A stretch of DNA of 64,000 nt. It comes from a virus. The notes beneath the pieces are model-generated. The model searched no databases. It saw only the letters and a list, made by a program, of their open reading frames with translations, and was not told the origin of the DNA. Below, one piece after another: positions 1 through 64,000 of this stretch. Positions within the stretch are counted from its first letter, which is position 1. Every line of letters begins with the position of its first letter. Both the position numbers and the translations under genes were made by a program. Location of the stretch: IMG/VR virus record IMGVR_UViG_3300024265_000045, positions 1 to 64,000 of that record; one strand, given 5' to 3'.

Positions 1-1313
1 TTTACGAATAATTTTTCTTTGTCAATATCCCAATATGTTCTATTTCGTAATGGAATTATCGGAGCCTCTCGCACCATTCGGAGTCTTAATTCTACAGTTG
101 TTACTCGACTAAAGTTATCCTGAGGATTTAATCCAAACTTTTTGTTCAAAGTAGAACTCCACATTTCAGTACCTTCTTCAAGAACGAGTTTGGTTTCTTT
201 GTTATACCAGAACACTCTACCTTGTTCAGACACTTGAAATATTTTACCACCTTCATCATTTAAGATGCTCCAAATCGTACTACTTGCAAGTCTGACAAGT
301 GTTAGCTTTGGCTGACCTTTTGTATATCTAATATCATCAAGAAGATTTACAGTATCGGGAGCTCGCATCAAAGATACCAACTCTGTCAACTTTCTCATTG
401 CTGTTACTGGAAGGATCTCTCCCAATCCTTGTCGACCTCTGACACTTTTACCTTCTTTGTGGCGAGCAAATGTAGACCTTATAGTTTGAAATCTATTTGC
501 TAAATCATTGTCATGCGTAGCCTCAGCGATTTTACGTATAAGTTCTTTAGATTGATCCGAACCCCAACCTTCGTGAGCTAAGAATCCCGATAAGTATAAA
601 GATAAGTCATGACGTTTTCCTTCAATCCAATATTCAGATAACAAAGCTACTAATTGAAGGTCTGGTGGATGTTCTTCCTGAATTATGCTCATTATATTTT
701 GATAATTAGTTTTACGACTAAGCATAACTATAGGATCCAAAATTGGTCCTTTTTCCCAATTTGCTTCTGGATCTATGAACTTACTAAATTCCCCTGTTTT
801 TGGATGAACTCCAAGCGGAATTTTTAGAAGATTTCCTTTGGGTCTTGACTTGGATAGAGAGTCTTGTTTAGGAAATGTCTCTACATGAGTTGCTCCACTA
901 GACGGCAGGTTCTCGGTTGCTCGAACCCATTCTGCAACCTTTTTCGCGTGTTTAGCTAACATGGGTTCTTCTAGGAAAATTAAAACATGATAGCCTTTAC
1001 CACCTGAATATTCAATAACATGAGGTATATCTTCCAAATAAGCAGTAATCCTGAGTACAATCTCTTTAGCTTTTTCAAGATCAATACTATCGACATCCCA
1101 TCCTAACCACCTAACTGAATTTGATGTTTGTTGGAGTTGATAAGCTCCAGCAATAACATTTCCATCTATATGTTCCTGTAGAATATTTTCAGTGAGAGAT
1201 GCTTCTACCGGAGTATATGCAATATCAGTACCTCTACTTCTAGCAACAGCATGATAAGGATTGTCTCCGAAAATGCGTAGAAGTAGTCGTACGATGTGGT
1301 CATTTTCAGTCAT
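1..1313 (-). CDS. AEP-superfamily primase-polymerase (TOTE/CAPP-like catalytic domain plus PriCT-like region), runs off the window edge
   Basis: Not in the ORF track because it has no stop inside the window. Manual translation from ATG at 1313 (overlaps the polA stop, TAATG): MTENDHIVRLL...RWLGWDVDS (motif I DxD)...EYSGGKGYHV (motif II)...ETFPKQD...GNLLKIPLGVHP. Confidence 0.85.
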   Translation of the reverse strand, partial: MTENDHIVRLLLRIFGDNPYHAVARSRGTDIAYTPVEASLTENILQEHIDGNVIAGAYQLQQTSNSVRWLGWDVDSIDLEKAKEIVLRITAYLEDIPHVIEYSGGKGYHVLIFLEEPMLAKHAKKVAEWVRATENLPSSGATHVETFPKQDSLSKSRPKGNLLKIPLGVHPKTGEFSKFIDPEANWEKGPILDPIVMLSRKTNYQNIMSIIQEEHPPDLQLVALLSEYWIEGKRHDLSLYLSGFLAHEGWGSDQSKELIRKIAEATHDNDLANRFQTIRSTFARHKEGKSVRGRQGLGEILPVTAMRKLTELVSLMRAPDTVNLLDDIRYTKGQPKLTLVRLASSTIWSILNDEGGKIFQVSEQGRVFWYNKETKLVLEEGTEMWSSTLNKKFGLNPQDNFSRVTTVELRLRMVREAPIIPLRNRTYWDIDKEKLFV

Positions 1314-3259
1314 TAATTATTCTCTTGTGCTTGTACTTGTGCTTGTACTTTTTCTTGAGATACTCTACGTTCTTCTGAAGCTATTTCAGATGCTAATAAA
1401 AATGCTTCTAATTCAGACTGCGAAAATTCTTGTTCAGAGGCTATAACTTCTGAATCAAGCGGATAAAGTTCACCATAACTTTTTCCAATTTTAGTATCAG
1501 TTACAAATGGTATGTTGAAAATATCAGGAACTTGCATAAGTTCACTTAGCTTATTAGCAGAACGAACTAAATGTTCATCCGGAATTTCAAAGATTAATTC
1601 ATCATGAACTAAATTTAAAAGATTATGGTCAGTCCCTTGCTTTCTGCACCACTTGGCTGAGCGTATTTCAGCTACAGATAAAATGTCAGCGCACCCTCCT
1701 TGAATCTGTGCATTAGCTCCACGATACATATAGTCTCTATCTTCTTCTCTCCATATTCTCCCACTCCAATATCTAAGATATAAATAATCTTCACATTGAG
1801 CAATTCTCTCAAGAAGCCAGGGTTGAATACGGGGGAATGTTTGATAATATTTTTCTGTTATTTTCTTAGCTTCATATTTTGATTTATTTAATCGATACAT
1901 CAAAGTACCGAGAGTCATTCCATAAATAAGTCCAAAAGAAATAGTTTTACTCCATTCTCTATGAACTTTATCTCTCGTACCCCATACAGCTTCAGCAATA
2001 TCTCCATGAATATCTCTTCCAGCATATAAGGAGGAGAGCATAAATGGGTCTTCGGATAAAATACCGAACATTCGCATCTCCATTTGCTTATAGTCAATTG
2101 CTAATAGTGATTTACCAGGACGGGATATAAATGCTTTTCGAAGATTGTATTCCTCAGTTCGTTCCATACTGCCTGTGTAGACACTTTGAGTGAATCTACC
2201 CCGAACAGAACTAGGAACATTTTGAAGATTAGGTTTGCTTGAACTTAATCTTCCTGTTCTAGTTCCTGTTAGATTGAATGAAGAATGAACTACATTATTT
2301 TCGTCTGATAGAGTAGCCCATCGCTCAAGTGTCTTTGCCAGTTTAGCAGTTTCTCGTAAAGAAGCTATTAGCTCTCCTAAAGGATGCTTTACTTTCTCCA
2401 TAAGAAGGAAGGTACTGGTAGAAGCAGAATTGTACTTTCCTTTATCAGCAAATTTACTGCGATCAACTCCGTCAGCATCAGCAAATGGATTTACAGGTCT
2501 AGCAATTCCGAGACCCTCGTAGATCGCATTACTTAATTGCTTGTGACTGCGCCAATTAAATCTAGCACCGCAAGAATCGTATAAAGCTTCTGCTAATTTT
2601 GACTCAGTTTCTCGTAAAGCATCGTGAGCTCTATGCGTATAAGGTATATTGACTAGAAATCCAGTTTCTTCAACATCTATTAAATCACAAAGATAAAACA
2701 TATCCTTAACAAATACTGGAAGAAGTAAATTCTCTTCCAGTACAGGATATAATTTTTCAGCTAGATCGTAGGTTACAAGAGCATCGTTACAGCAGTATTT
2801 GACGGTAAGGTCTAAATCCCATTCCCAAACTTTATTTTTCTTTCCTCTAGGAGGTTCTTCTTGATATCCTCTTTTACTATCACTTCCAAGATAAATGTGT
2901 TCAGCGTTCGTTAATGCTTTACGAACACGACTATCTACTAAATGAACCATAACTGTCGTATCCCACAGAGTCCATCCAAGTTCTCTGGGTTGTATTCTCA
3001 AAAAGTGACAGTCAAATTTAGCATTATGCATGATGACAGTTGTTTCAGGACTTAACTGTCTCGTAAGATTTTTTAGATCTTCTATTTCTTTATAGTTTTC
3101 CACAGGCATATATCCCCAGACTTCTGCGTCTGGACAATATATTCCCATGCCAATGATTTTATTATCCCAAAATTTTAATCCAGTTGTTTCAAGATCAATG
3201 GCTACTTTCTTTCCGGAACACTCTAGAATTTTGCTCCGTGAAATTATTCCCATTTCCAT
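1313..3259 (-). CDS. polA: Family A DNA polymerase with 3'-5' exonuclease, no 5'-3' exonuclease
   Basis: ExoI DLETTG, HNAKFD, TGRLSSSKPNLQN, motif A DYKQMEMR, motif B KTISFGLIYG (Phe at the 762-equivalent position), motif C VHDELIFE. Confidence 0.97.
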   Translation of the reverse strand: MEMGIISRSKILECSGKKVAIDLETTGLKFWDNKIIGMGIYCPDAEVWGYMPVENYKEIEDLKNLTRQLSPETTVIMHNAKFDCHFLRIQPRELGWTLWDTTVMVHLVDSRVRKALTNAEHIYLGSDSKRGYQEEPPRGKKNKVWEWDLDLTVKYCCNDALVTYDLAEKLYPVLEENLLLPVFVKDMFYLCDLIDVEETGFLVNIPYTHRAHDALRETESKLAEALYDSCGARFNWRSHKQLSNAIYEGLGIARPVNPFADADGVDRSKFADKGKYNSASTSTFLLMEKVKHPLGELIASLRETAKLAKTLERWATLSDENNVVHSSFNLTGTRTGRLSSSKPNLQNVPSSVRGRFTQSVYTGSMERTEEYNLRKAFISRPGKSLLAIDYKQMEMRMFGILSEDPFMLSSLYAGRDIHGDIAEAVWGTRDKVHREWSKTISFGLIYGMTLGTLMYRLNKSKYEAKKITEKYYQTFPRIQPWLLERIAQCEDYLYLRYWSGRIWREEDRDYMYRGANAQIQGGCADILSVAEIRSAKWCRKQGTDHNLLNLVHDELIFEIPDEHLVRSANKLSELMQVPDIFNIPFVTDTKIGKSYGELYPLDSEVIASEQEFSQSELEAFLLASEIASEERRVSQEKVQAQVQAQENN

Positions 3260-3401
3260 CCTTATCCTCCGAAATACTTACAGTAATGAATTGTATGTCA
3301 TAAAACTCATATTCTGCATCACAAGTAGGGCAATAGAAAGTCCAACCCATACGAGTCTCTAAATCAATTTCTGCACACTTTTTGCAAGATGCAACTATCA
3401 T
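3195..3401 (-). CDS. Small zinc-ribbon protein
   Basis: CKKC and CPTC pairs; co-oriented within the operon. Confidence 0.55.
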   Translation of the reverse strand: MIVASCKKCAEIDLETRMGWTFYCPTCDAEYEFYDIQFITVSISEDKDGNGNNFTEQNSRVFRKESSH

Positions 3402-3407
3402 ATCATG

Positions 3408-3764
3408 TTAGTTATCTTTTGCTTGTAACACCCGAGTATCTATAATAGCTGGTTGAAATACAGGCATGAATATGACTAAAATAATTTTCTCTAACTGACT
3501 CACAGGCATATCCGCTACTAGAGTTATTATCATTTGTTGATTTGCCAGTTCAGATGCTCTAGAAGCTAATTCACCAAAAAAATCTGACTGACCTTTATTA
3601 CATAAACTGAACATATAATTAGGATTGACAAACACATAGGATACAGGATCTCCTATAATTATATCCTCAGTTATAAGTAATTTACTCGGAGATACCATTT
3701 TTATCCTTGTATATACAGGGTCTATCAAAACTAGCTTCAAATCCGCATGGCTCGGGATATTCAT
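3408..3764 (-). CDS. Hypothetical protein
   Basis: Co-oriented ORF filling the operon gap; true start may be downstream of 3764. Confidence 0.5.
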   Translation of the reverse strand: MNIPSHADLKLVLIDPVYTRIKMVSPSKLLITEDIIIGDPVSYVFVNPNYMFSLCNKGQSDFFGELASRASELANQQMIITLVADMPVSQLEKIILVIFMPVFQPAIIDTRVLQAKDN

Positions 3765-4455
3765 ACGGAGCTTTTAGAAATGAGGAAATATTAGCTCCCA
3801 AAGTATTATTCGCTAAATCTTTCATCTTTGTCAGAACATCTTGCCACTCTCCCGCTTGAGCTTGACAACACATCCTCTGCTTGTAAATGTTAGCAAGAGT
3901 TGATAAAGCACAACCGAAAAATACAGCGGTAAGAATATTAGTGGGCAATATTCCTCGAGCATCTTGACTAGGAATACCCTTTTTAAGTAGCAGTTCATAC
4001 GTATCTATAGTTAATACACCAACATCTGTATATACTGAGCTACAATCTTTTGAATTAGCTATATTTGTAGCTGTTAAAATAGAATATGTATTTTTCATAC
4101 CCAAGAAACGCATACTTTCTTGAGCGTAAGATGCTCCTACTCTAGTTCTAACTAACTGATGGGTAAAAGCTCTAGACACATCAGTAATTAGCCAAACTAT
4201 ATACATCATTTCAAGGGGGGTTCGTAATTGAGTATTGTGCATATCTTTCACAGCTTTGGTTATAGTTTTATCTGAAACATCCATAGCATCTAAAACTCCA
4301 CTGTAAGTTCCAACGACTTTAGCTAAGGTTTGTTCTGCTCGTTTCATCCAATCGATCAGATAAACCTTAGCGGTTGGGGACTTTACAAATCTTACATTGT
4401 AAGTTGTATTGTCTTTTCTAATCTTTTGAATCTGATGTACAACATTGTTCTCCAT
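3682..4455 (-). CDS. thyX: ThyX-like flavin-dependent thymidylate synthase homolog (divergent)
   Basis: DVSRAFTHQLVRTRVGASYAQESMRF, DARGILP, RMCCQAQ.EW. The canonical RHR is RTR here. Confidence 0.85.
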   Translation of the reverse strand: MENNVVHQIQKIRKDNTTYNVRFVKSPTAKVYLIDWMKRAEQTLAKVVGTYSGVLDAMDVSDKTITKAVKDMHNTQLRTPLEMMYIVWLITDVSRAFTHQLVRTRVGASYAQESMRFLGMKNTYSILTATNIANSKDCSSVYTDVGVLTIDTYELLLKKGIPSQDARGILPTNILTAVFFGCALSTLANIYKQRMCCQAQAGEWQDVLTKMKDLANNTLGANISSFLKAPYEYPEPCGFEASFDRPCIYKDKNGISE

Positions 4456-4801
4456 ATTCGATCTCCTTTACATCTTGTCCTGTCCAATTTCCTAATTCCA
4501 TCATTGCCAATGCAATCATGGAATATATTCCTATGTCCCTAAATATATTGTCAAGAGCATCTGTAGATTTTATACGCTCTTCAGGCGTAGCATTCAGTAC
4601 ATGTGTTCTCAATCTAGCAATTGCTCCTATCAATTCTACACTAGCTCCTAACACTCCAGTTTCAAGAATAGCATCACCGTGTTCTCTATTCTTTCGAACA
4701 AAAAGATTGGTCATTTCAAAAGCATTAGTGCAAATCTGATGTTCACGATCCTCTAATCTTTGCTCTAGCTTCATGTTGTTTGATTGTTGTTCTGACTCCA
4801 T
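4418..4801 (-). CDS. Small helical protein, DUF1599 / nucleotide-modification-associated-domain-like
   Basis: LFVRKNREHGDA...DIGIYSMIAL pattern; GGAGG RBS; sits between thyX and the pyrophosphatase gene. Confidence 0.6.
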   Translation of the reverse strand: MESEQQSNNMKLEQRLEDREHQICTNAFEMTNLFVRKNREHGDAILETGVLGASVELIGAIARLRTHVLNATPEERIKSTDALDNIFRDIGIYSMIALAMMELGNWTGQDVKEIEYGEQCCTSDSKD

Positions 4802-5711
4802 ATTTGGGATCCTCCATAAAATTATCTACAAAAGCTACGTTATTTAATTCTCCCTCCAAAAATTCGTTATACGGAAATCTACGAGCAATAACTGGAATTC
4901 CTGAAGTTGCTGCTCGCATAATCCATACTGGATCATCATCTAAAATAATAACTTTATTGTTGACTGCAAGTTCATCAGCTAACAATATTCTCTTATCTTT
5001 AACAAACAAGAGATATTCAGGATTTAATCCGTGTAAAGACAGCCATGAATATGTGTCAAACCATACACTTTGAATTTCAGGAAATGGTCTAGCTGTAACG
5101 AATATGACTTTGAATCCTATAGATTGTAATTTTTTCACATATTGCGTAGCGTCTTTATATTCCTGAGCAAATACGTACATTCCAGCTTCTTCCAATCCTC
5201 GTTTCATTACTGCATAGTCAGGATATCTCATAGACAATACTTGATCCATCAGTAATGTTGATTGAGGTATGTCTGAAGTATCTTGGTCAGCCCACTCAAT
5301 AATTGTGTCATGTAAATTTACCAAAATTCCATCTAAATCAACAATTAAAATTTGCTCATTTGTAAGAAGTATATTTTCCTGAGTTAACATATGTTCAAGA
5401 AATTTGCTTTTTCTATCAACATATATTTGAATTTGCTCTGCCGAAAATCCCCAGATTTCCCATAGAGATAAAACATATTTAGTAAGATCAGCTAGTTGAT
5501 GTCCTATATTAGTTTCAATAAATTTAATGTCTTGCTTACGATGTCTTTTCCAATGAATAGCATCTAAAACATCATCTATTTCTGAAATCAAACCAAGTAA
5601 ATAAGTAGATGTCCATTCTTCTTTCGACAAAGGATTTGCCGCTCGTATTACGTTGTTATATTTTGACTGCTGTTCTAGCATAAGTTTCAAAATATTTTTA
5701 TCATTGCCCAT
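4743..5711 (-). CDS. All-alpha NTP pyrophosphatase (dUTPase/MazG-like) fused to a HAD-family nucleotidase
   Basis: N-terminal EIDDVLDAIHWKRHR...QLADLTKY; C-terminal HAD motifs LIVDLDG, FVTAR, ILDDDP. Confidence 0.8.
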   Translation of the reverse strand: MGNDKNILKLMLEQQSKYNNVIRAANPLSKEEWTSTYLLGLISEIDDVLDAIHWKRHRKQDIKFIETNIGHQLADLTKYVLSLWEIWGFSAEQIQIYVDRKSKFLEHMLTQENILLTNEQILIVDLDGILVNLHDTIIEWADQDTSDIPQSTLLMDQVLSMRYPDYAVMKRGLEEAGMYVFAQEYKDATQYVKKLQSIGFKVIFVTARPFPEIQSVWFDTYSWLSLHGLNPEYLLFVKDKRILLADELAVNNKVIILDDDPVWIMRAATSGIPVIARRFPYNEFLEGELNNVAFVDNFMEDPKYGVRTTIKQHEARAKIRGS

Positions 5712-6456
5712 TTCGAATGACTTCCTTTACTTTGGTATAAACTTCATGAGCTAATAATTTTCTATTTCCTGTAGCCAAACGTCCAATAGAAAAAACATTT
5801 GTTGGAAAAGTTAGCAACTCTACAGGAATAGTTGGATGAAGATCAAGAAATGTAGATAGCTCTTCCTTAGAATTATACCAAAAAGCATATTCCACAGAGA
5901 GTTTGCCAAATAACATAGACATTCGAACAACGGGATCGTCTCGAAGTCCATTATAGAGAACCAAATTAAATTCGCTTTGACATTTTTTTAGTAATACTGG
6001 AATGTATACAAGACCTTTACACATATTCGAAGTTATCTCTTCTTGAAGCAAGAAGGATTTAAATACAATGTCATAAGATTTTGCCAGTCGAATTATTTCT
6101 TCTGCGGAAGTAAATGTTCTAGCTTTAATCGCATGTAAATTTTGCCACAATGAACCTAAAACAAAATATGGTTCAAATGCAAATTCCATAAAGTATTGAT
6201 ACGAAAAGGATGAAGCTAATGTATCATCTCCCCATTGTTTTCCAACATATCCCAAAGAATCTCCAACTGAAGTTATATGAATTGGAAATTGTTGACTATG
6301 GTCAGACATAGAAGCAGGAAGCCATCTAAGCCAAAAAGCTCCAGACACTTCCATTCGTAAATCCGTAGCAAAAACATCTATATCACATTTTTCCTCTGAT
6401 GCAGCTTGGAAAGCATATGCAGCAGACGGACCCCCTCCTAAAATAGCAACTCGCAT
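5701..6456 (-). CDS. FAD/NAD(P)-binding oxidoreductase-like protein
   Basis: N-terminal Rossmann motif MRVAILGGGPSA; C-terminal NVFSIGRLA resembles the GR motif of UDP-galactopyranose-mutase-like flavoproteins. Confidence 0.7.
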   Translation of the reverse strand: MRVAILGGGPSAAYAFQAASEEKCDIDVFATDLRMEVSGAFWLRWLPASMSDHSQQFPIHITSVGDSLGYVGKQWGDDTLASSFSYQYFMEFAFEPYFVLGSLWQNLHAIKARTFTSAEEIIRLAKSYDIVFKSFLLQEEITSNMCKGLVYIPVLLKKCQSEFNLVLYNGLRDDPVVRMSMLFGKLSVEYAFWYNSKEELSTFLDLHPTIPVELLTFPTNVFSIGRLATGNRKLLAHEVYTKVKEVIRNGQ

Positions 6457-6457
6457 G

Positions 6458-6859
6458 TTATCCTCCGGATTGAAATATTATGTTTGGATCAATGTTACGA
6501 GTAATAAGAAAATGATAGCGTAAAAGATTTAAAGCATCTGATTCATGTTGACTAATATTTTTATATTTCCATTTTCGAGCTTTCGCTATGGGTTTCCAAT
6601 GTCCTGGAAGTATACGAATAAATTTCTTAGTGCCGAATATTTGATCTAAATAACTATATATGGGACTGGTTCTCAAGGGAAATTTTTCTATGATAACTTT
6701 GTCAAACATACTGTCTATCAATGAAAAAATTTGAGGTTCATCCTGACATAATTTGAGAAATATTTCAGAATTATACGAAAATACATCCAAGGAAGTATTC
6801 GTAACAGTAGCGATAGCAACTCCTGTCGTGCGTCCGGGATCAAGACCTAGCCAGAACAT
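6458..6859 (-). CDS. RuvC-like Holliday junction resolvase (phage type)
   Basis: LGLDPGRTTGVA, VIIEKF, HESDA. Confidence 0.8.
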   Translation of the reverse strand: MFWLGLDPGRTTGVAIATVTNTSLDVFSYNSEIFLKLCQDEPQIFSLIDSMFDKVIIEKFPLRTSPIYSYLDQIFGTKKFIRILPGHWKPIAKARKWKYKNISQHESDALNLLRYHFLITRNIDPNIIFQSGG

Positions 6860-6862
6860 AAT

Positions 6863-6903
6863 AAAAAAAACGGCGGGGGAGTACTCCTCGTCCTCCCCCC
6901 GCC
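6863..6903 (-). terminator. Intrinsic terminator after the SSB gene
   Basis: GC-rich stem GGCGGGGG/CCCCCCGCC followed by T8 on the minus strand. Confidence 0.8.
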
Positions 6904-6925
6904 TTACACCAGAAAATAGCTGGAA

Positions 6926-7396
6926 CTACTTCAAAACGTCCGTAGGTATGCCTTCAGGCATCTTAACTTCTGGAACGTTGCTGTCAGATCCAGACATTGT
7001 ATGACTGGACTTGGCTGTCACAACTGGAGAAGTTTTCGCTGCTTTGTCGCTTCGAGCAAATACCTGAACACATTTCTGTCTCATTGTTCCCTGATATTCT
7101 TCATTGGCAATCTTACCACGAATAACCTTGCCAACAAAATCGTGATGATCCATCTCACCGGTTTCCGGAACTCCGCAAGCATTGAAAAATTCTTCGGTTT
7201 TCCAACGAGCATTCGGGGACAAAGATACCATCAGAAGAGTGGTAGCACCCTTCTCCGGAGTATTATCCTGGCAAGTGAGTTGGAACATCCAATACGGAAA
7301 TTCCCCAGTCTGCCGTTCTTCACTTTTGGTGATCTTGAAGAGATGTATCCCTTCAGAGAGCTCAACAATTTCACGCTTCAAATTTACTTTTGTCAT
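6926..7396 (-). CDS. DUF669-like single-stranded DNA-binding protein
   Basis: EGIHLFKITKSEE...ARWK...FFNACG...FVGK...EEYQG; flexible C-terminal tail; follows the Sak4-like gene. Confidence 0.7.
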   Translation of the reverse strand: MTKVNLKREIVELSEGIHLFKITKSEERQTGEFPYWMFQLTCQDNTPEKGATTLLMVSLSPNARWKTEEFFNACGVPETGEMDHHDFVGKVIRGKIANEEYQGTMRQKCVQVFARSDKAAKTSPVVTAKSSHTMSGSDSNVPEVKMPEGIPTDVLK

Positions 7397-7432
7397 ATTT
7401 AATTACTCCTTAATTGTGAACTAAAAAATTGA

Positions 7433-8128
7433 TTACGCCCAAAATGACATGATTTGTTCATATGTGGGACCTTCCATTATTTGAGGCAACGCATCTGAAC
7501 GATCTTTTGTTACTTGTAGTTGACCATCAAATGTCATTACTCGTATAGTCTCTCCTTCTGCATTTTCAGACTTGTCCATAAATCCAACAATATCCATCAT
7601 TCGACAGTAATTTCTGGCAGTCTTTTTACCAACAAGCTGTGGAACGATAGGGTCAGTTTCATATTGTCTAGCTTCAGACTGAGCTACAAATATAACATTC
7701 ATGGGCAAACTCTTCAAATCTCGAACCATTTTGTCGGCTCTATGAAGCATATATCCATAATCTGACTGACTAGGTAGATCTTGATAGGCTCTTCGTATAG
7801 CAGGAAATTTCCTGATTAAATATTCCATACATTTTTCTTGAAGTTCATTAAGAGAATCTACAACAACTGTTTTATAGCCATGCTCGGACTGTTCAATAAA
7901 CTCAAAAGCTTCCTCTAGATCTTCCCATAGTTCAATACCAAATTTACCTACCTTCAACTTAACTGAATCTAAACCTCCATCTATGTCAAGAAATACAACC
8001 TCATCCCAGGTTGAGCCAAATCTGGTCTTACCAACTCCTGACTCACCGTACACTAGCATTTTCACTCTTTTAGTATTAAATACTCCAGAATGAGTTTCTA
8101 ACATTAATCGTCCTTCTTCATCACGCAT
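7433..8128 (-). CDS. Sak4-like (AAA_24) ATPase / recombinase
   Basis: Walker A YGESGVGKT, FLDIDGG, Walker B TVVVDSL, DIVGFM, KDR. Confidence 0.88.
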   Translation of the reverse strand: MRDEEGRLMLETHSGVFNTKRVKMLVYGESGVGKTRFGSTWDEVVFLDIDGGLDSVKLKVGKFGIELWEDLEEAFEFIEQSEHGYKTVVVDSLNELQEKCMEYLIRKFPAIRRAYQDLPSQSDYGYMLHRADKMVRDLKSLPMNVIFVAQSEARQYETDPIVPQLVGKKTARNYCRMMDIVGFMDKSENAEGETIRVMTFDGQLQVTKDRSDALPQIMEGPTYEQIMSFWA

Positions 8129-8139
8129 TTACTTTCTCC

Positions 8140-8964
8140 TTACGCATCTCTAGTAAAATCTCGTTCAAATGATTCTAAAATAATATCAGCATCTCCACAA
8201 TCATTTATGCTTTGACATACGGGAAAGAAAGAACAATCCCAAGCACATTCACGTACAGGAGTTCTATAAATCATATATCCAACATTAGGTACATTTTCAT
8301 GGAAGTCTCGCATTTCGCCTAATTGTTTGGTTATCTCATTCTCGATATATTCCAACCCCTCGATATTTCGAAACAATCGTATCCGTTCAACAGGTTCATT
8401 CGCTGCTTTCCCACCTTTTGTCATCCGTACAATGTTATATAAGACACCATACGGATTAAGACCAATTTTATGCGAAGCTAACATATATAGACTTATTTGA
8501 GCATCCACATCTAAATGTCCAGTAGACACCTGTTTCAGAAATTTATGCTCTAAGATCCAAGTCATATCTTTTATTTTTACTATTCCATCTATATAACCAA
8601 TAACTGGAATTCCAGCTATGTCAATTTCAAATTTAAACTCTGTTTTTTCCACTGTAAAGCTATCGTTATCTCTAGCCCAGTCGAAATATCGCGGTAGAAC
8701 AACTTGTAACAAATCCCACTCCTTGTCCAAGGATGAATCCAAAGTCATCTCTGCATCAGTCAAATGATCCATAGCTATCCGCATAGCTTCTTTATCATCT
8801 GCCGTTCTGTACCATTCATCCATTGCTTTATGGCAAGCAGAACCTTTAATTAGACCAACTCCAGCAACGGGAACATAATTTTTTACATATTTCCAAAAAT
8901 ATCTTTGCTTACATCTGCGCCAAGTTGACATACTTGTATGTGAAAATCTACGTGGTTTCGTCAT
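8140..8964 (-). CDS. PD-(D/E)XK exonuclease (RecB/Cas4-like, probable Fe-S cysteines)
   Basis: SHTSMSTWRRC, GSACH, GYIDGI, ILEHK, QISLY, CAWDCSFFPVC. Confidence 0.88.
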   Translation of the reverse strand: MTKPRRFSHTSMSTWRRCKQRYFWKYVKNYVPVAGVGLIKGSACHKAMDEWYRTADDKEAMRIAMDHLTDAEMTLDSSLDKEWDLLQVVLPRYFDWARDNDSFTVEKTEFKFEIDIAGIPVIGYIDGIVKIKDMTWILEHKFLKQVSTGHLDVDAQISLYMLASHKIGLNPYGVLYNIVRMTKGGKAANEPVERIRLFRNIEGLEYIENEITKQLGEMRDFHENVPNVGYMIYRTPVRECAWDCSFFPVCQSINDCGDADIILESFERDFTRDA

Positions 8965-9295
8965 CTATTTCTCCTACTCGAATTTTAATAAATGAATATT
9001 CTTTATTCTTATACACTCCCATATTTATTTCAGTATCTGGAAATAATTTGCCTAAAACTATTCCAATAATGAAATTCATAAATGTTTTTCCAGCTGGGAG
9101 AAAAGCATCTTTTTCAGGATTGAATTCAGCAAAAGACTCAGCAATAATTTTGATAACAATATCTTGATCATCGAATCCAGAAGTTACATATTTTATTCTG
9201 GAGGTATGCTCAGATAAAGTTGAAAAATCATGTGATGGTTCACATACATAAATTGTATCAAACCAATCGCAATTTAATGAAGGAGCATCCATCAT
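8948..9295 (-). CDS. Hypothetical protein
   Basis: Overlaps both neighbours, consistent with translational coupling. Confidence 0.6.
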   Translation of the reverse strand: MMDAPSLNCDWFDTIYVCEPSHDFSTLSEHTSRIKYVTSGFDDQDIVIKIIAESFAEFNPEKDAFLPAGKTFMNFIIGIVLGKLFPDTEINMGVYKNKEYSFIKIRVGEIDDETT

Positions 9296-11154
9296 TTATC
9301 CTCTGTGAAAAATTCTCGTAATTGTCCAGTTGTCAAAGCAAAACTGTTATTCTTTTTATACTCTAAAACTTTATGAATCACATGATCAATAGTCTGATTT
9401 CCGTCAAAAGTAACGGCAAGGGCGTGGAGTACATGGGGCGAGTGTTCTGTTCCAATACGTCTAATCCTGTGCAGGGATTGATAATAATCATCCCCATTGT
9501 ACCCACGCTCTAAGTATAAGGCAGTTCTAGCAGCCGTCAGAGTAAATCCAAACTTCCCAACAGCTGGATGAGCTATCAAAATATCAAGCTCTCCTGCCTG
9601 AAACTTCGTAACAATTTCTTGTCGTTGAATGGCTTTTGTTTTCCCCGTTAGACTTGCAACTCTAAACTTTTTCTTAGCTAAAATTTCTTCCAAGAAAACA
9701 GCAGTCTTGACAAAGTTAGTCCAAATAATCATCGGTAACTTCACATAACTTATAATCTCAGGAACCGCTTTCCACTTTGCTCCATCGTCCCTGCCGTCTA
9801 CGAGTAATGGATTTGAAGCTATTTGAACTAATCGTAATAGTTGAGTTAATACATTTGGAGCAAGTACAACCTCCCCATCAGGTAGAGTAGCTAAAAACTC
9901 AGTTTCCATTTGCAGATACATTTTAGTCTGAGATTTAGACATTGATATTTCCATATCCTCAATAATCCAATCTGGTAAATCCAAAACTTGATCTTGAGTT
10001 CTAGCCAAATAAATGTCTCTAAGATCGTTTAGTAAGTTTTTATTTGCTCCGGGTTTATTTCCAGTTATTTGATAACCCCATTGATTCTGCAAAACATAAC
10101 AATATCTGCCAGTAAATTTCCAGTATGAAGAAAATCTACGTAAGTCTAGTAAATTTAATTGTGACCAAAAGTCATCTATAAATTTACTAGATGGAGATCC
10201 AGACAATAGCCATACTCTGGATATATGTTTCGCTAAAAGTTTTAGTTTCTTGACTCGTTTAGTTTTCCTATTCTTACAAAGTATAGACTCGTCAATAATC
10301 ATAACATCCCAGTCGTATGATAAATATGAGTCTACATGCCTAACTGCCGTATCATAATTAGTTATTATCCAACGTTCGTCTCTAGTATCCCAAGTTGTTC
10401 TATGCCAGATTTCAGAATCTTCGTTAGTCCATTTTCTTATTTCATTTTGCCATGTACGAACTAGAGATAAAGGACAAATTATCAAAACACTCTTTGCGTT
10501 GACGGCAAGGGCTGCATCGATGGCGCAGCGAGATTTTCCAAGTCCAGGAGCAAGTCCAAGAAGAACTCTATTTCGTTTTACTAGAAAATTTACAGCTTCT
10601 GGCTGAAAATCCAAAAGAGTTGATGAATATTCATCAACTATTTCATTTTTTGCTTCATCTTCTTGTAGCCAAAATTCTACAGACTCACCTAGTGTAATTT
10701 CGTCAAAATTATCCAGAAGAGCATTTAATGAACCTCGATTCATTTTAGCTGTCCAGCAAAATTCTCCTTCTTGCCTTGTACCCCTAAATCCATATTCTTT
10801 GAGAAATGTAGTTGGATATATTTTTGGGAAAAATATCAACTCAGAACCTGATACTATTGCAAGTCCATCAGTCTTTTTCTTTGGAACAAATTCCCTGAGT
10901 TCGGGAATAATTACTTGATAATAATTTTCAAACTGACCATGATATTTCGGAAGAATTCGTTTAGCTATGTCATATTGTTTTGACGAAAGGTCTAATTGTT
11001 TCTCCAAAATTTGTTTAGCAAACGAAGTCATAATTGGAGCATCGATAGTATTAAATCCACGACCATTATCTTCTATGGTTGTGCTGTTTAGTTGCTCTGT
11101 AGATGTTTGTTGATCGTATAAAAAAAGTATCTTTTGTAGAATTTCTCTATCCAT
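9292..11154 (-). CDS. SNF2-family helicase
   Basis: LAPGLGKS, ICPLSL, ITNYD, IIDES, LSGSP, GFTLTAA, QSLHRIRRIG. Confidence 0.93.
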   Translation of the reverse strand: MDREILQKILFLYDQQTSTEQLNSTTIEDNGRGFNTIDAPIMTSFAKQILEKQLDLSSKQYDIAKRILPKYHGQFENYYQVIIPELREFVPKKKTDGLAIVSGSELIFFPKIYPTTFLKEYGFRGTRQEGEFCWTAKMNRGSLNALLDNFDEITLGESVEFWLQEDEAKNEIVDEYSSTLLDFQPEAVNFLVKRNRVLLGLAPGLGKSRCAIDAALAVNAKSVLIICPLSLVRTWQNEIRKWTNEDSEIWHRTTWDTRDERWIITNYDTAVRHVDSYLSYDWDVMIIDESILCKNRKTKRVKKLKLLAKHISRVWLLSGSPSSKFIDDFWSQLNLLDLRRFSSYWKFTGRYCYVLQNQWGYQITGNKPGANKNLLNDLRDIYLARTQDQVLDLPDWIIEDMEISMSKSQTKMYLQMETEFLATLPDGEVVLAPNVLTQLLRLVQIASNPLLVDGRDDGAKWKAVPEIISYVKLPMIIWTNFVKTAVFLEEILAKKKFRVASLTGKTKAIQRQEIVTKFQAGELDILIAHPAVGKFGFTLTAARTALYLERGYNGDDYYQSLHRIRRIGTEHSPHVLHALAVTFDGNQTIDHVIHKVLEYKKNNSFALTTGQLREFFTEDK

Positions 11155-61514: not shown

Positions 61515-62027
61515 TTAAACCGGAAGATTATAAATTTCCGGCAACCATCTATGAAGACCTCTCCTTTTATGGAAGGTCTTCAATTTTTGTATATAGAGGG
61601 AAATAGTTCTGGGGGACAAATTAAGAGTTTCATCAATATCCCCCAAACCCTGTAGAAACTGTAAAGCTATCGGAGCACAATTATGAACTTCACATGTACA
61701 TGGTGGATAAGCTGAGATATCATTACTCCAACAAGTATTGTCACAGGGTTTACCTGATCTGAAATCTGTTAAAGCTGATACAATAACATGTAGAAGTATA
61801 GTACCGGCAGAGTCAATAGATGCCTCTGATAATAATTTTGACTTTTTATACGGAGAAATTACTTTATTCAAATACCATTGGTCAGCACGAAGACAAATGG
61901 TAGTATATGAATTAGAAACAATGTTATTTTCATATAAAAATTTTATGATCTCCTCTTCCGGAAAAGTTGAGTTCATATAAAGTTCTACATAATCTAAGCG
62001 TATATATTTCTTATCCTGATTAGTCAT
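61515..62027 (-). CDS. Hypothetical protein with Cys cluster
   Basis: Convergent stop 1 nt from the 61513 stop. Confidence 0.6.
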   Translation of the reverse strand: MTNQDKKYIRLDYVELYMNSTFPEEEIIKFLYENNIVSNSYTTICLRADQWYLNKVISPYKKSKLLSEASIDSAGTILLHVIVSALTDFRSGKPCDNTCWSNDISAYPPCTCEVHNCAPIALQFLQGLGDIDETLNLSPRTISLYIQKLKTFHKRRGLHRWLPEIYNLPV

Positions 62028-62149
62028 TTTTGCTCTGTACCAGTGTCTAAAAGTAAATTAGTGCTGTAGTACCTGGTTTGCCAATGCGTGTAAATTTGAG
62101 CAAGTTTAGTGCCTTTTTGACCGTATTTTAGGGCTGTGGTGGTGTACAT
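62024..62149 (-). CDS. 41-aa coupled ORF (below the ORF track cutoff)
   Basis: ATG directly after the upstream TAA; its TGA overlaps the next ATG; MYTTTALKYGQKGTKLAQIYTHWQ... Confidence 0.45.
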   Translation of the reverse strand: MYTTTALKYGQKGTKLAQIYTHWQTRYYSTNLLLDTGTEQK

Positions 62150-62872
62150 TTACAATATGTCGTCTAACTTTACTCTTGGATACAATTCTAGCTTTCCGCC
62201 TACAGTAGCATTGAAAATCTTTATTCCAAGTTTTTCAGCCCAATAGATGGTTATTCTGTGAGCAGCTAGGAAGTTTTGAACAGCGACTTCAGGAGAAAAT
62301 GGTATTGCCTGATAGCCAGGATCAAAATGGTTTGGATCAGGTTCATCAGAGGTATAATCGTGTGGAACAATATCTATGTCTGTTCCAACTAGATATAATT
62401 TATAAAATCCCATATAGAATGCTATCTGGAAAACTGTAAGTATACTCGAAGCAAATTTTGAAACTCTACGAGAGATATCATTTGACCAACATTCAATCCC
62501 TGGAATTTCCTCGTACTCTGTAACATCTTTTCCATCACAGTTCATAGGAAACACATGATCATATGGATTGTCGGACCAGTTAAGTTTATTGACAAATGAA
62601 ATTGTTCCAGGATATAAGATCGCATCCATAAATACTTTTCTAGAGGTCACATCTTCAAACTCACTGGCAACGCAGACATAGTAATTCGGTCTCCACGTAG
62701 TTTGAGAATAGATCAGAGATATTTTATTCATAGCAAAGGAACAATCACTAGTCAATTTTTCAAGCGGAGTCTTAAGTAAACTCTTGCCGTTCCCAACTAT
62801 GAATGCTCTTTCTCCACGATGGACATTTCTAAATTTCTGAAGTCTAGGATATATCATAACGTATCTCCCCAA
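62150..62872 (-). CDS. DUF115/Maf-like (MptE-like, sialyltransferase-like) protein
   Basis: RAFIVGNGKSL, WRPNYY, QIAFYMGFYKLYLVGTD, NHF, IFNATVGGKLELYPR. Confidence 0.82.
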   Translation of the reverse strand: MGRYVMIYPRLQKFRNVHRGERAFIVGNGKSLLKTPLEKLTSDCSFAMNKISLIYSQTTWRPNYYVCVASEFEDVTSRKVFMDAILYPGTISFVNKLNWSDNPYDHVFPMNCDGKDVTEYEEIPGIECWSNDISRRVSKFASSILTVFQIAFYMGFYKLYLVGTDIDIVPHDYTSDEPDPNHFDPGYQAIPFSPEVAVQNFLAAHRITIYWAEKLGIKIFNATVGGKLELYPRVKLDDIL

Positions 62873-63564
62873 TATTTACCACTAGCTATAATCGTAGCAT
62901 GAGATGTCCAATCGTAACTGTCGTATGGTTCAACAGTCAAGTTCTCTCTATTTACAAGCAATACTTCGAAATCCCTTTGTAGAAAATGACGAATAATATC
63001 ATCAGGATTACCTGCAGAAGGATGAATTTCTACTATCCAATATCTTACTTCACACATAGAGTTCAATGCTTCAGGAAATAATTCAAATTCTGTACCCTCA
63101 ATGTCAATTTTGATGACATAGATAGGTTTCTCTGCAGCCCAAGAAATACTCTTGAGCCAAGACATCGTTCGAAATCTTCCTGGTTGTTCTCCACACCCCT
63201 GTAGTCGAGAAAGATGTTGCTTCTCCCCCTCGATGAAGCACTCCTGCATAAAATATGGTCTGCCGTATCTACGGAGATTATCAGAGGTATACGTCAAAGC
63301 TATTTTATTACAATCTATCGCAAGTACGGTAGCTCCACACGAAGTGAATACAACAGAATAGTTACCTTGATGACATCCTATATCAATAACCAATCTATCT
63401 TTCATATTGATATTATTTATAACCCATTCATACTCAAGTTTAGTATATGGTTTCAAAGGATAAAACCAGTCAATTGCTTCTTGCGTGAAATATTTATATA
63501 TTATGTCTTTTCCGTCTCTATTGGTAATATCCAAAGATGCAATAAAAGGTAATTGTTCATTCAT
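62854..63564 (-). CDS. FkbM-like SAM-dependent methyltransferase
   Basis: VIDIGCHQG, VIKIDIEGTE, IVEIH. Confidence 0.85.
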   Translation of the reverse strand: MNEQLPFIASLDITNRDGKDIIYKYFTQEAIDWFYPLKPYTKLEYEWVINNINMKDRLVIDIGCHQGNYSVVFTSCGATVLAIDCNKIALTYTSDNLRRYGRPYFMQECFIEGEKQHLSRLQGCGEQPGRFRTMSWLKSISWAAEKPIYVIKIDIEGTEFELFPEALNSMCEVRYWIVEIHPSAGNPDDIIRHFLQRDFEVLLVNRENLTVEPYDSYDWTSHATIIASGKYWGDTL

Positions 63565-63731
63565 CTTTTCCTATCCATTGCTTGAGAAACATTAGCGAAT
63601 AGCATAAGGAAAACGGCAACAAGCAGAAAAGCCCACCATGAAGATTTGTCATGGTAGGTAAGGAATCCTGCCCACATAATACAGCAGATACTAGGAAGTA
63701 GTCGTATCGTCGTTTTTATTATCTCTTTCAT
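63561..63731 (-). CDS. Small two-TM membrane protein
   Basis: Probable start MKEIIK after GGAG; two hydrophobic segments. Confidence 0.55.
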   Translation of the reverse strand: MKEIIKTTIRLLPSICCIMWAGFLTYHDKSSWWAFLLVAVFLMLFANVSQAMDRKR

Positions 63732-63933
63732 CTTTATCTCCTTCGTCGTATATTGAGTCCATAATTTGAACAATACGACTGATAACTAAGTTCATGAAAT
63801 TTTGATCCATAGTAACATTGATCGGAATTCCTTCCATCCAATTTATACCTTCATATATTATTTTTAGATGTTCAATCCCAGCAGCGTCTTTATACCTTAC
63901 AGTCTCTACAGGATCAAAATTGTATGCTTTCAT
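63691..63933 (-). CDS. Hypothetical protein
   Basis: AAGGAG RBS. Confidence 0.6.
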   Translation of the reverse strand: MKAYNFDPVETVRYKDAAGIEHLKIIYEGINWMEGIPINVTMDQNFMNLVISRIVQIMDSIYDEGDKDERDNKNDDTTTS

Positions 63934-64000
63934 CTTAAAATCTCCTTATAAAATATATCGATATCTGAATTGATTGAAATTATTGTTCCAACAAGTTGTA

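Follow-up and report, generated by a model that had tools for sequence, protein, structure and literature searches.

We analyzed a window of 64,000 nucleotides (64 kb; the whole stretch of DNA under study) from the virus record IMGVR_UViG_3300024265_000045, which is 72,576 bp long, is rated complete by CheckV and is AT-rich (G+C ~38%). Our subject is a block of four overlapping minus-strand genes upstream of polA, which encode a mini flavin adenine dinucleotide (FAD)-binding protein (Ross251), a fusion of a pyrophosphatase-like domain with a HAD phosphatase domain, a divergent DUF1599 candidate, and a ThyX-family protein (Table 1). A sequence-only reading of the window had proposed that the ThyX protein no longer methylates deoxyuridine monophosphate (dUMP) and that the virion DNA may carry a modified U or C. 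The gene layout from which that reading started is correct: the list of open reading frames (ORFs) places the four genes where it had put them, and Pfam identifies the downstream gene as a polymerase (DNA_pol_A, E=4e-71; DNA_pol_A_exo1, E=1e-8). Assuming that the first start codons are used, the four ORFs overlap by 11, 59, and 38 nt.

Table 1. Features of the block, its surroundings and other genes discussed (window positions unless marked as genome positions)
Feature	Length	Position	Strand
Mini FAD-binding protein (Ross251)	251 aa	5701..6456	-
Pyrophosphatase-like/HAD fusion	322 aa	4743..5711	-
Divergent DUF1599 candidate	127 aa	4418..4801	-
ThyX-family protein	257 aa	3682..4455	-
ORF in variable spacer between ThyX and polA	118 aa	3408..3764	-
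ORF with two CxxC pairs, zinc-ribbon-like	68 aa	3195..3401	-
Family A DNA polymerase with 3′-5′ exonuclease domain (polA), downstream of the block		1313..3259	-
Primase-helicase, first piece	437 aa	3..1313	-
Primase-helicase, second piece	425 aa	genome 71243..72520	-
Protein with HATPase_c and RIIA-like matches	580 aa	51068..52810	+
Accessory island		genome 61515..71246 (window 61515..64000 and locus L030 515..10246)	-
dCMP deaminase (within the island)		genome 66014..66481	

A gene-neighborhood survey revealed that the order of the block is kept across 15 related viral contigs, which we count as ~12 distinct ones because three pairs gave identical match statistics. In these contigs, where ThyX is 39-50% identical to the window protein, the genes run SNF2, small protein, nuclease, ATPase, two small proteins, flavoprotein, and fusion, followed by the 127-aa protein, a variable insert, ThyX, a second variable insert, polA, and primase-helicase. 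The fusion and polA are present at all 15 loci, the flavoprotein at 14 (the remaining locus is truncated by the contig end), and the 127-aa protein, by blastp, at 14. This arrangement exceeds chance.

The surroundings of the block are those of a replication region. Upstream lie a SNF2 helicase, a PD-(D/E)XK-type nuclease, a Sak4-like ATPase, and small replication proteins, with labels taken from the ORFs and from synteny; our Pfam and PHROG scan of these upstream neighbors covered the 133-aa and 156-aa proteins only. Two small ORFs separate ThyX from polA. The 118-aa ORF had no Pfam or PHROG match, blastp at 1e-4 detected no homolog of it at any of the 15 related loci, and these loci hold differing inserts at its position. 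A homolog of the 68-aa ORF was present at only one of the 15 loci (L008). The primase-helicase gene is split across both ends of the record, and relatives carry a protein of ~840 aa; thus, the linear record is a circular permutation of the complete genome. DNA-level comparison of positions 1313-9300 with cultured phages gave no match, and polA is at most ~28% identical to any cultured phage polymerase. Of the sequencing runs listed for this sequence, one is a DNA data set, which may come from the source sample, and none is an RNA data set.

A ThyX-like protein without the signature histidines

The 257-aa protein is a ThyX homolog, as had been proposed. Its Thy1 match (PF02511, E=3.9e-25) scored 89.2 bits against a cut-off of 24.8 bits, and its AlphaFold2 (AF2) model (pLDDT 91) has the ThyX fold. 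In Foldseek comparisons, the top solved matches were all ThyX or PolB, with E ~1e-11 and TM of 0.62-0.67 by query for the solved ThyX structures.

Both motifs that the sequence-only reading had described as altered do differ from those of canonical enzymes. The signature RHRx7S is absent; instead, residues 103-114 read RTRVGASYAQES, i.e., RTR(x8)S (R103-T-R105-x8-S), which makes the segment one residue longer than in the ThyX proteins of Mycobacterium tuberculosis and Thermotoga maritima. At the N-terminal motif, residues 77-83 read LRTPLEM, compared with HETPFEH in T. maritima. We compared the active sites by aligning the family profile onto T. maritima ThyX and found the signature histidines replaced and the dUMP-side residues retained. 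Leu (L78) stands at the position of His53, Met at that of His59, Thr at that of His79, Gln at those of Glu86 and His178, and Phe at that of Tyr91, and Cys196 and Cys197 take the places of Asp176 and Ser177. In T. maritima ThyX, His53 stacks on the folate pterin, and His79 and His178 contact the adenosine part of FAD. Equivalents of Gln75, Arg78, Arg80, Ser83, Ser88, Arg90, Arg147, and Arg174 are retained, and the TPxE segment is kept (Thr55 and Glu58 equivalents). In ThyX, dUMP is bound by Gln75, Arg78, Arg80, Ser88, Arg90, Arg147, and Arg174.

The loss of both histidines is clade-wide rather than a one-off. Among the best 120 of 1,296 homologs, from which all our clade statistics derive, none carries His at either position: at the His79 position, 80 have Tyr, 38 have Thr, one has Lys, and one has Ser, and at the His53 position, 119 have Leu and one has Phe. 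The dUMP-side residues, in contrast to these positions, are invariant in 118-120 of the 120 homologs, the Thr and Glu of TPxE are nearly so, and Cys196, Cys197, Cys237, and Cys247 are invariant or nearly so. As read from the alignment, the altered active site is under purifying selection rather than decaying.

To place these proteins among other ThyX sequences, we built a maximum-likelihood tree of 47 rows: 12 homologs (every third alignment row), five cultured-phage proteins, and 30 matches from cellular genomes. At least 150 aligned residues were required of the cellular rows, so that 38 of 68 were dropped. The 20 rows lacking His53 were all set apart, with 100/99 support, from the 27 rows of canonical ThyX. 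No relative in 185,579 species genomes exceeds 41% identity, and the nearest ones lie on contigs of metagenome-assembled genomes (MAGs); 62 of the 68 ThyX matches from cellular genomes keep RHR. On this phylogenetic evidence, the ThyX-like protein belongs to a separate, almost purely viral clade.

The four conserved cysteines form a probable metal site that would tie the Arg174 helix to the C-terminal tail. We also considered that they might serve as an essential catalytic nucleophile or as an Fe-S center, and set this role aside: a regular-expression scan found no four-cysteine pattern in the ThyX-like proteins of phages Ss1, Ralstonia PY059, TM61, and Dryad, so that a structural metal site seems more likely. 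Separately, some canonical RHR/GH-type ThyX genes on MAG contigs (loci L035, L054, and L070, from Deferribacteraceae, Lawsonia, and Ruminococcaceae) have 7-9 cysteines and, following the equivalent of Arg174, an R-C-C-x-R-A-Q motif. Thus, a cysteine-rich variant also occurs among otherwise canonical enzymes.

One reading of the altered motifs is that the protein acts on UMP, dCMP, or nucleic acid rather than on free dUMP, or is not catalytic. The UMP/dUMP methylase PolB (4p5a/4p5b) is among both the structural and the sequence matches, indicating that the ThyX fold can change substrate, and the cofactor-side residues of the window protein are altered. However, the dUMP residues are strictly conserved in the 120 homologs, which speaks for a functional nucleotide site, and in all lineages the gene lies in a replication/nucleotide module beside the polymerase. 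We regard a different substrate, or none, as improbable.

Partner proteins and the same genes in cultured phages

The 251-aa protein had been called a Rossmann flavoprotein, and its N-terminus (VAILGGGPSA) and the full-length match of its model to UDP-galactopyranose mutase (UGM) bear out that description. The AF2 model (pLDDT 91) matched UGM in Foldseek with an E value of 7e-10, and the best solved match was E. coli UGM (1i8t; VIA-align Z 14.9 over 240 residues, rmsd 3.4), followed by protoporphyrinogen oxidase, renalase, and flavin monooxygenases with Z ~12.5. There was no Pfam match, including to GLF (PF03275). The protein has the two-domain fold of the UGM/amine-oxidase type but lacks the helical domain of the mutase; only the FAD and beta-sheet domains align, so it does not have the three-domain architecture of UGM. 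Its nearest ESM Atlas clusters are ~96-100% viral.

In one scheme, the ThyX-like protein would be a folate-independent or partner-fed synthase whose product is still dTMP, with the UGM-like/amine-oxidase-like flavoprotein (drawing, for example, on an oxidized N-methyl compound or formaldehyde) delivering either the one-carbon unit or reduced flavin in place of methylene-tetrahydrofolate and NADPH. The Leu that stands in for His53, to which we ascribe the pterin-stacking role, in 119 of 120 homologs is in keeping with this scheme, as are the constant company of an amine-oxidase/UGM-fold flavoprotein and the occurrence, among the structural matches, of ThyX entries that by their titles hold formaldehyde-derived flavin adducts (7ndw and 7ndz). 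But Leu can still pack against pterin, the flavoprotein has no nameable substrate, and prediction of a complex between two copies of ThyX and the flavoprotein gave ipSAE values of 0.00 and 0.01 which, as obtained without controls, speak neither for nor against binding. We consider partner feeding improbable.

The fusion protein had been read as a dUTPase/MazG-like domain joined to a HAD domain. The second half of that description is firm. Residues ~117-300 are 5′(3′)-deoxyribonucleotidase-like, with a match to NT5C (PF06941, E=3.4e-7) of 30.8 bits against a cut-off of 24.8 bits and profile matches in the PDB to chains of the cdN and mdN deoxyribonucleotidases (E ~0.002). D125 and D127 of the DxD motif, T206, and D259 are invariant in the alignment. 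By its sequence, this half is taken to be a phosphatase of the 5′(3′)-deoxyribonucleotidase type. For the N-terminal half, the label is less secure: residues ~8-105 appear all-alpha and NTP-pyrophosphatase-like (MazG/DCTPP1/dimeric dUTPase superfamily), with weak matches to dUTPase_2 (E=0.022, below the cut-off) and to MazG-like, DCTPP1, and dimeric dUTPase chains (E 0.007-0.56). E44 and D75 are invariant in this domain.

The description of the 127-aa protein as DUF1599-like is plausible. The helical window protein itself has no Pfam match, and PF07659 matched one of 12 relatives (E=0.0025); in the ESM Atlas, 18 of the 30 clusters nearest to the protein carry DUF1599, and gp61 of phage PBI1 matches its profile with E=7e-4. 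We therefore treat it as a candidate divergent member of DUF1599, or "Nucleotide modification associated domain 1" (Nmad names are said to come from Iyer et al. in 2013). Since conservation starts near residue 17, the true start may lie downstream of position 4801. Comparison of the profile with solved structures gave chance-level matches only. We also compared the 127-aa family with the N-terminal domain of the fusion by hhalign; the probability of 0.1% is not significant, and we make no claim that the two are paralogs.

ThyX-like proteins of the same type occur in cultured phages. All 12 that we examined lack the motif His and the GH..EH segment. The motif reads RTR in PB1, XcP1, Bas98, Kyle, Ralstonia PY059, and Salmonella PCSE1; RQR in PBI1, MoiGyank, and Wollypog; RNR in Cronobacter Ss1 and Rhizobium TM61; and RSR in Dryad. 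Pairing of the His-less ThyX with a small UGM-like flavoprotein was found in 11 of the 12, four with the 251-aa type and seven with a type of ~320 aa; the match in TM61 was weak (E=0.038). HAD phosphatases often accompany the His-less ThyX in these phages.

The sequence-only reading had pointed to oxidoreductase/ThyX/pyrophosphatase neighborhoods in actinophages, and such neighborhoods are real. Full-length homologs of the 251-aa protein are encoded by Wollypog (gp52), PBI1 (gp58), MoiGyank, and Dryad (E 1e-18 to 6e-23), and HAD homologs lie beside or near the flavoprotein in both actinophages examined for them (Wollypog gp54 and PBI1 gp59). In a table of the Xenia2 genome announcement, families of oxidoreductase, phosphatase, FabG-like reductase, and ThyX-like proteins are co-distributed in clusters D, DV, and EF (PMC11385102).

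In proteobacterial phages, a protein of ~300-333 aa with an N-terminal GxGxxG (GAGLAGL) and a C-terminal GRFATWRN(I/L)LLDDV is encoded upstream of the ThyX-like gene (loci L100, L018, L019, L103, L104, L106, and L107). At six of the seven loci, it is adjacent or one to two small genes away; in PB1, ~1.2 kb and five small genes intervene. In Kyle its annotation is oxidoreductase, and in the other six phages hypothetical. The protein probably represents a second kind of UGM-like flavoprotein that partners the ThyX-like enzyme. Alignment by hhalign of the 251-aa family with the ~320-aa flavoproteins was restricted to the C-terminal motif (probability 55%, E 1.2e-4), suggesting that the two are distant cousins rather than one family. 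Downstream in these phages are a PNKP-type HAD and the replicative polymerase, in many cases together with a small pyrophosphatase and an SDR resembling FabG. The SDR is adjacent in Bas98, XcP1, Kyle, and PBI1 and absent from the window phage genome, and we rejected it as a core part in that phage; the Bas98 SDR resembles generic FabG, not pteridine reductase. In the 203-kb Rhizobium phage TM61, the ThyX-like gene lies beside dUTPase and ribonucleotide reductase, which is an ordinary dNTP-supply context.

Thymidylate synthesis or a modified pyrimidine

Our preferred model, to which we assign a probability of about 0.5, is that the block is a conserved phage nucleotide-pool module in which the ThyX-like protein makes dTMP with altered cofactor handling. 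The retained nucleotide site, the position in a replication module, and the lack of any other thymidylate synthase point to one-carbon transfer onto C5 of dUMP. In the complete window genome, the His-less ThyX is the sole gene of a thymidylate-synthase family, with a single Thy1 match and no ThyA. ThyA was likewise absent from the seven cultured phages checked (Wollypog, XcP1, PB1, MoiGyank, Bas98, PBI1, and TM61), and XcP1, PB1, Bas98, PBI1, and TM61 each have exactly one Thy1 match. Also in favor of this model are the dCMP deaminase of the window phage, the setting of the TM61 gene, the pairing with a flavoprotein, the published reading of the wyrdvirus block, the lack of modification genes among the ORFs scanned, and the avoidance of palindromes (the last three discussed below).

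According to this model, the protein would bind dUMP through the retained equivalents of Gln75, Arg78, Arg80, Ser88, Arg90, Arg147, and Arg174, as the alignment predicts, and would hold flavin through those of Thr55 and Glu58. It would then add a one-carbon unit to C5, the likeliest product being dTMP, which would supply the AT-rich genome. The exchange of His53, His79, and His178 for Leu, Thr/Tyr, and Gln would change the cofactor side, that is, the handling of flavin, reductant, or one-carbon donor. We envisage the UGM-like mini flavoprotein as a redox or flavin partner of the ThyX-like protein. The pyrophosphatase-like domain would convert dUTP or dCTP to the monophosphate, leaving it to the HAD deoxynucleotidase and the DUF1599-like protein to trim the nucleotide pool.

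Several observations weigh against this model. A simple thymidylate synthase could do without a flavoprotein, HAD phosphatase, pyrophosphatase, or SDR of its own; yet such accessory genes travel with the ThyX-like gene across very distant phages, including the SDR in Bas98, XcP1, Kyle, and PBI1. A pyrimidine-type 5′-deoxynucleotidase adjoining an enzyme that makes dTMP looks counter-productive. The absence of the signature His throughout the clade, compared with the RHR of most cellular ThyX proteins, suggests that the chemistry or the use of cofactors has truly changed. In addition, the literature searched reports no assay of any enzyme of the His-less clade.

These same features could instead reflect base replacement, which we regard as possible though unlikely. 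In that case, ThyX would transfer the methylene without the step of hydride transfer from flavin; the intermediate with its exocyclic methylene would be trapped by water or another nucleophile, and 5-hydroxymethyl-dUMP or another 5-substituted dUMP would enter DNA. The fusion would destroy dTTP and dTMP, the flavoprotein would keep the flavin reduced or process the product, and the phage polymerase would incorporate the new nucleotide. The classical gene set of hydroxymethyl-uracil phages comprises a dNTP pyrophosphatase, a deoxynucleotidase, and a dCMP deaminase, and the pairing of a pyrophosphatase-like domain with a deoxynucleotidase in a phage that has a dCMP deaminase mirrors it. The fusion of deoxynucleotidase to dNTP pyrophosphatase suits removal of a canonical nucleotide, the histidines are lost clade-wide, a flavoprotein, HAD, and SDR are conserved with the enzyme in distant phages, and the Pfam name of DUF1599 refers to nucleotide modification. 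According to the discussion in PMC8989533, the exocyclic methylene of the ThyX reaction is open to nucleophilic attack in related systems.

Evidence against base replacement comes from the gene inventory. The window holds a synthase homolog and the dNTPase/dNMPase-like fusion, but the 71 ORFs scanned with Pfam and those scanned with PHROG, all outside the 12-38 kb structural region, yielded no nucleotide kinase, glycosyltransferase, or hypermodification family; specifically, these ORFs include no phage dNMP kinase, 5-hydroxymethyldeoxyuridine (5-hmdU) DNA kinase, aGPT-Pplase, or glycosyltransferase. The phages checked carry no second, canonical thymidylate synthase beside the His-less one, so there is no visible sign that its function is non-redundant. 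For the widely studied PB1-type phages, the literature searched reports no modified base, although this is the absence of a report only. In favor of base replacement, Wifcevirus, which carries the enzyme, is insensitive to restriction with no known protection mechanism. This phenotype is non-specific, however: N4-like and Gordonclarkvirinae phages show it in the same study, which does not mention the ThyX-like gene. The counts of Wifcevirus recognition sites in S2 Table of PMC11990801 bear on the weight of the phenotype.

Restriction sites in the window genome provided a further line of evidence. GGCC does not occur in the 72.6-kb genome, where ~60 sites are expected under a Markov model, or in the window, where dinucleotide shuffles predict 91 ± 10. 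The 16 four-base palindromes are depleted (mean z -3.2), and these include T-containing palindromes (TTAA, z -9; ACGT and CATG, z -4.7). Such avoidance implies that the DNA is still exposed to restriction, which mildly disfavors a protective modification of thymine. As hydroxymethyl-uracil phages also avoid restriction sites, the argument is not decisive. A modified C, the other possibility raised by the sequence-only reading, is disfavored, since GGCC is wholly absent, as expected if unprotected cytosine sites are restricted. GGCC avoidance also argues against blanket cytosine modification by a ThyX-like protein that acts on dCMP or nucleic acid. In relatives, GGCC avoidance varies in degree, as expected for host-specific restriction pressure. 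The restriction-avoidance signature is strong and points to a host with a GGCC-specific system.

If base replacement were nonetheless correct, no earlier route to a non-canonical pyrimidine in DNA would have been based on ThyX: the His-less enzyme, with the UGM-like flavoprotein, would transfer the methylene from a flavin iminium to dUMP and omit the last hydride step, while the fusion removes dTTP and dTMP, a proposal that we hold to be doubtful. Its consequences would be that phages in wide use (Pbunavirus, Wifcevirus, and cluster D mycobacteriophages) carry an unnoticed thymidine modification and that this modification explains the unexplained restriction insensitivity of these phages.

Outside the block, the genome has an accessory island downstream of the primase-helicase, with genes for a DEDDh exonuclease, two FkbM-type methyltransferases, a family-2 sulfotransferase, two MptE-like (PF01973) proteins, the dCMP deaminase, and a GH25 lysozyme. 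This gene mix looks like glycan-modifying cargo. We considered the MptE-like, sulfotransferase, FkbM, and dCMP deaminase genes as parts of a core pathway and rejected them; the MptE-like and deaminase genes are each present in one of five related genomes and in neither of the two complete ones. Elsewhere in the window, the HATPase_c and RIIA-like matches (PHROG "RIIA lysis inhibitor") probably stem from the 580-aa protein; around it lie ~60 small ORFs on the plus strand, nearly all without a family match.

Relation to known enzymes and pathways

In the literature searched, we found no description of the His-less clade or of the function of the module. What appears new, judged from the sequences, is that a ThyX lineage specific to viruses has an altered cofactor side, probably a metal site of four cysteines, and a flavoprotein partner that looks obligate. 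ThyX, as defined by RHRx7S, is an antibiotic target. A large clade (more than a thousand metagenomic proteins, of which the 120 examined are all His-less) that drops the signature His while gaining these features implies that flavin-dependent methylation is run in a new manner or that the product is new. The module occurs in easily grown phages that are used in therapy or kept in reference collections (PB1-type phages, BASEL Bas98-101, and SEA-PHAGES cluster D). Genes of the clade are routinely annotated as thymidylate synthase; the motif differences are grounds for the label ThyX-like.

Viral blocks of related composition have been described. In the Asgard archaeal wyrdviruses, a dUTPase-ThyX-DUF1599 block has been read as serving thymidylate synthesis (bioRxiv 10.1101/2021.07.29.453957). 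As far as that description can be compared, the two share the trio of pyrophosphatase, ThyX, and DUF1599 in a virus, but the wyrdvirus block is described with no mention of a flavoprotein or HAD. The pathways of hydroxymethyl-uracil synthesis and thymidine hypermodification in SPO1, ViI, M6, and PaMx11, as outlined in PMC8989533, likewise combine a thymidylate-synthase homolog that acts on dUMP with pool-shaping enzymes, and PaMx11 also employs an FAD-dependent enzyme. In contrast to the window block, they use dUMP hydroxymethylases of the ThyA family, a P-loop 5-hmdU DNA kinase, and aGPT-Pplase transferases, none of which turned up in the ThyA search of the window genome or among the ORFs scanned.

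Among single enzymes, Glf (UGM) is the best structural match of the flavoprotein, covering 240 of its 251 residues, and the two have in common a C-terminal GR...W/Y..R motif. The mutase is longer (367-510 aa versus 251 aa), identity is 12-19%, and the common fold does not establish a common function. Canonical ThyX, represented by T. maritima TM0449 and the M. tuberculosis enzyme, shares with the window clade the fold, the Pfam family (matched above the cut-off), the dUMP-side residues, and TPxE. The clade differs in lacking the signature His, in the extra residue of the RHRx7S segment, in four invariant cysteines and a C-terminal extension, and in traveling with a dedicated flavoprotein.

The closest counterparts are in cultured phages. 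PB1 ORF59, Bas98_0051, XcP1_049, Kyle gp75, PBI1 gp65, and MoiGyank gp86 belong to the same His-less clade, although they are only 25-35% identical to the window protein. Their polymerase is of the DnaE type, whereas that of the window phage is PolA, and the proteobacterial phages have the ~320-aa flavoprotein, the PNKP-type HAD and, often, the FabG-like SDR that the window genome lacks. Despite these differences, the ThyX-like gene in Pbunavirus PB1, Wifcevirus Bas98, Xanthomonas phage XcP1, Pantoea phage Kyle, Mycobacterium phage PBI1, and Gordonia phage MoiGyank is associated, as in the window phage, with genes for the replicative polymerase, a HAD phosphatase, and a small protein that binds FAD.

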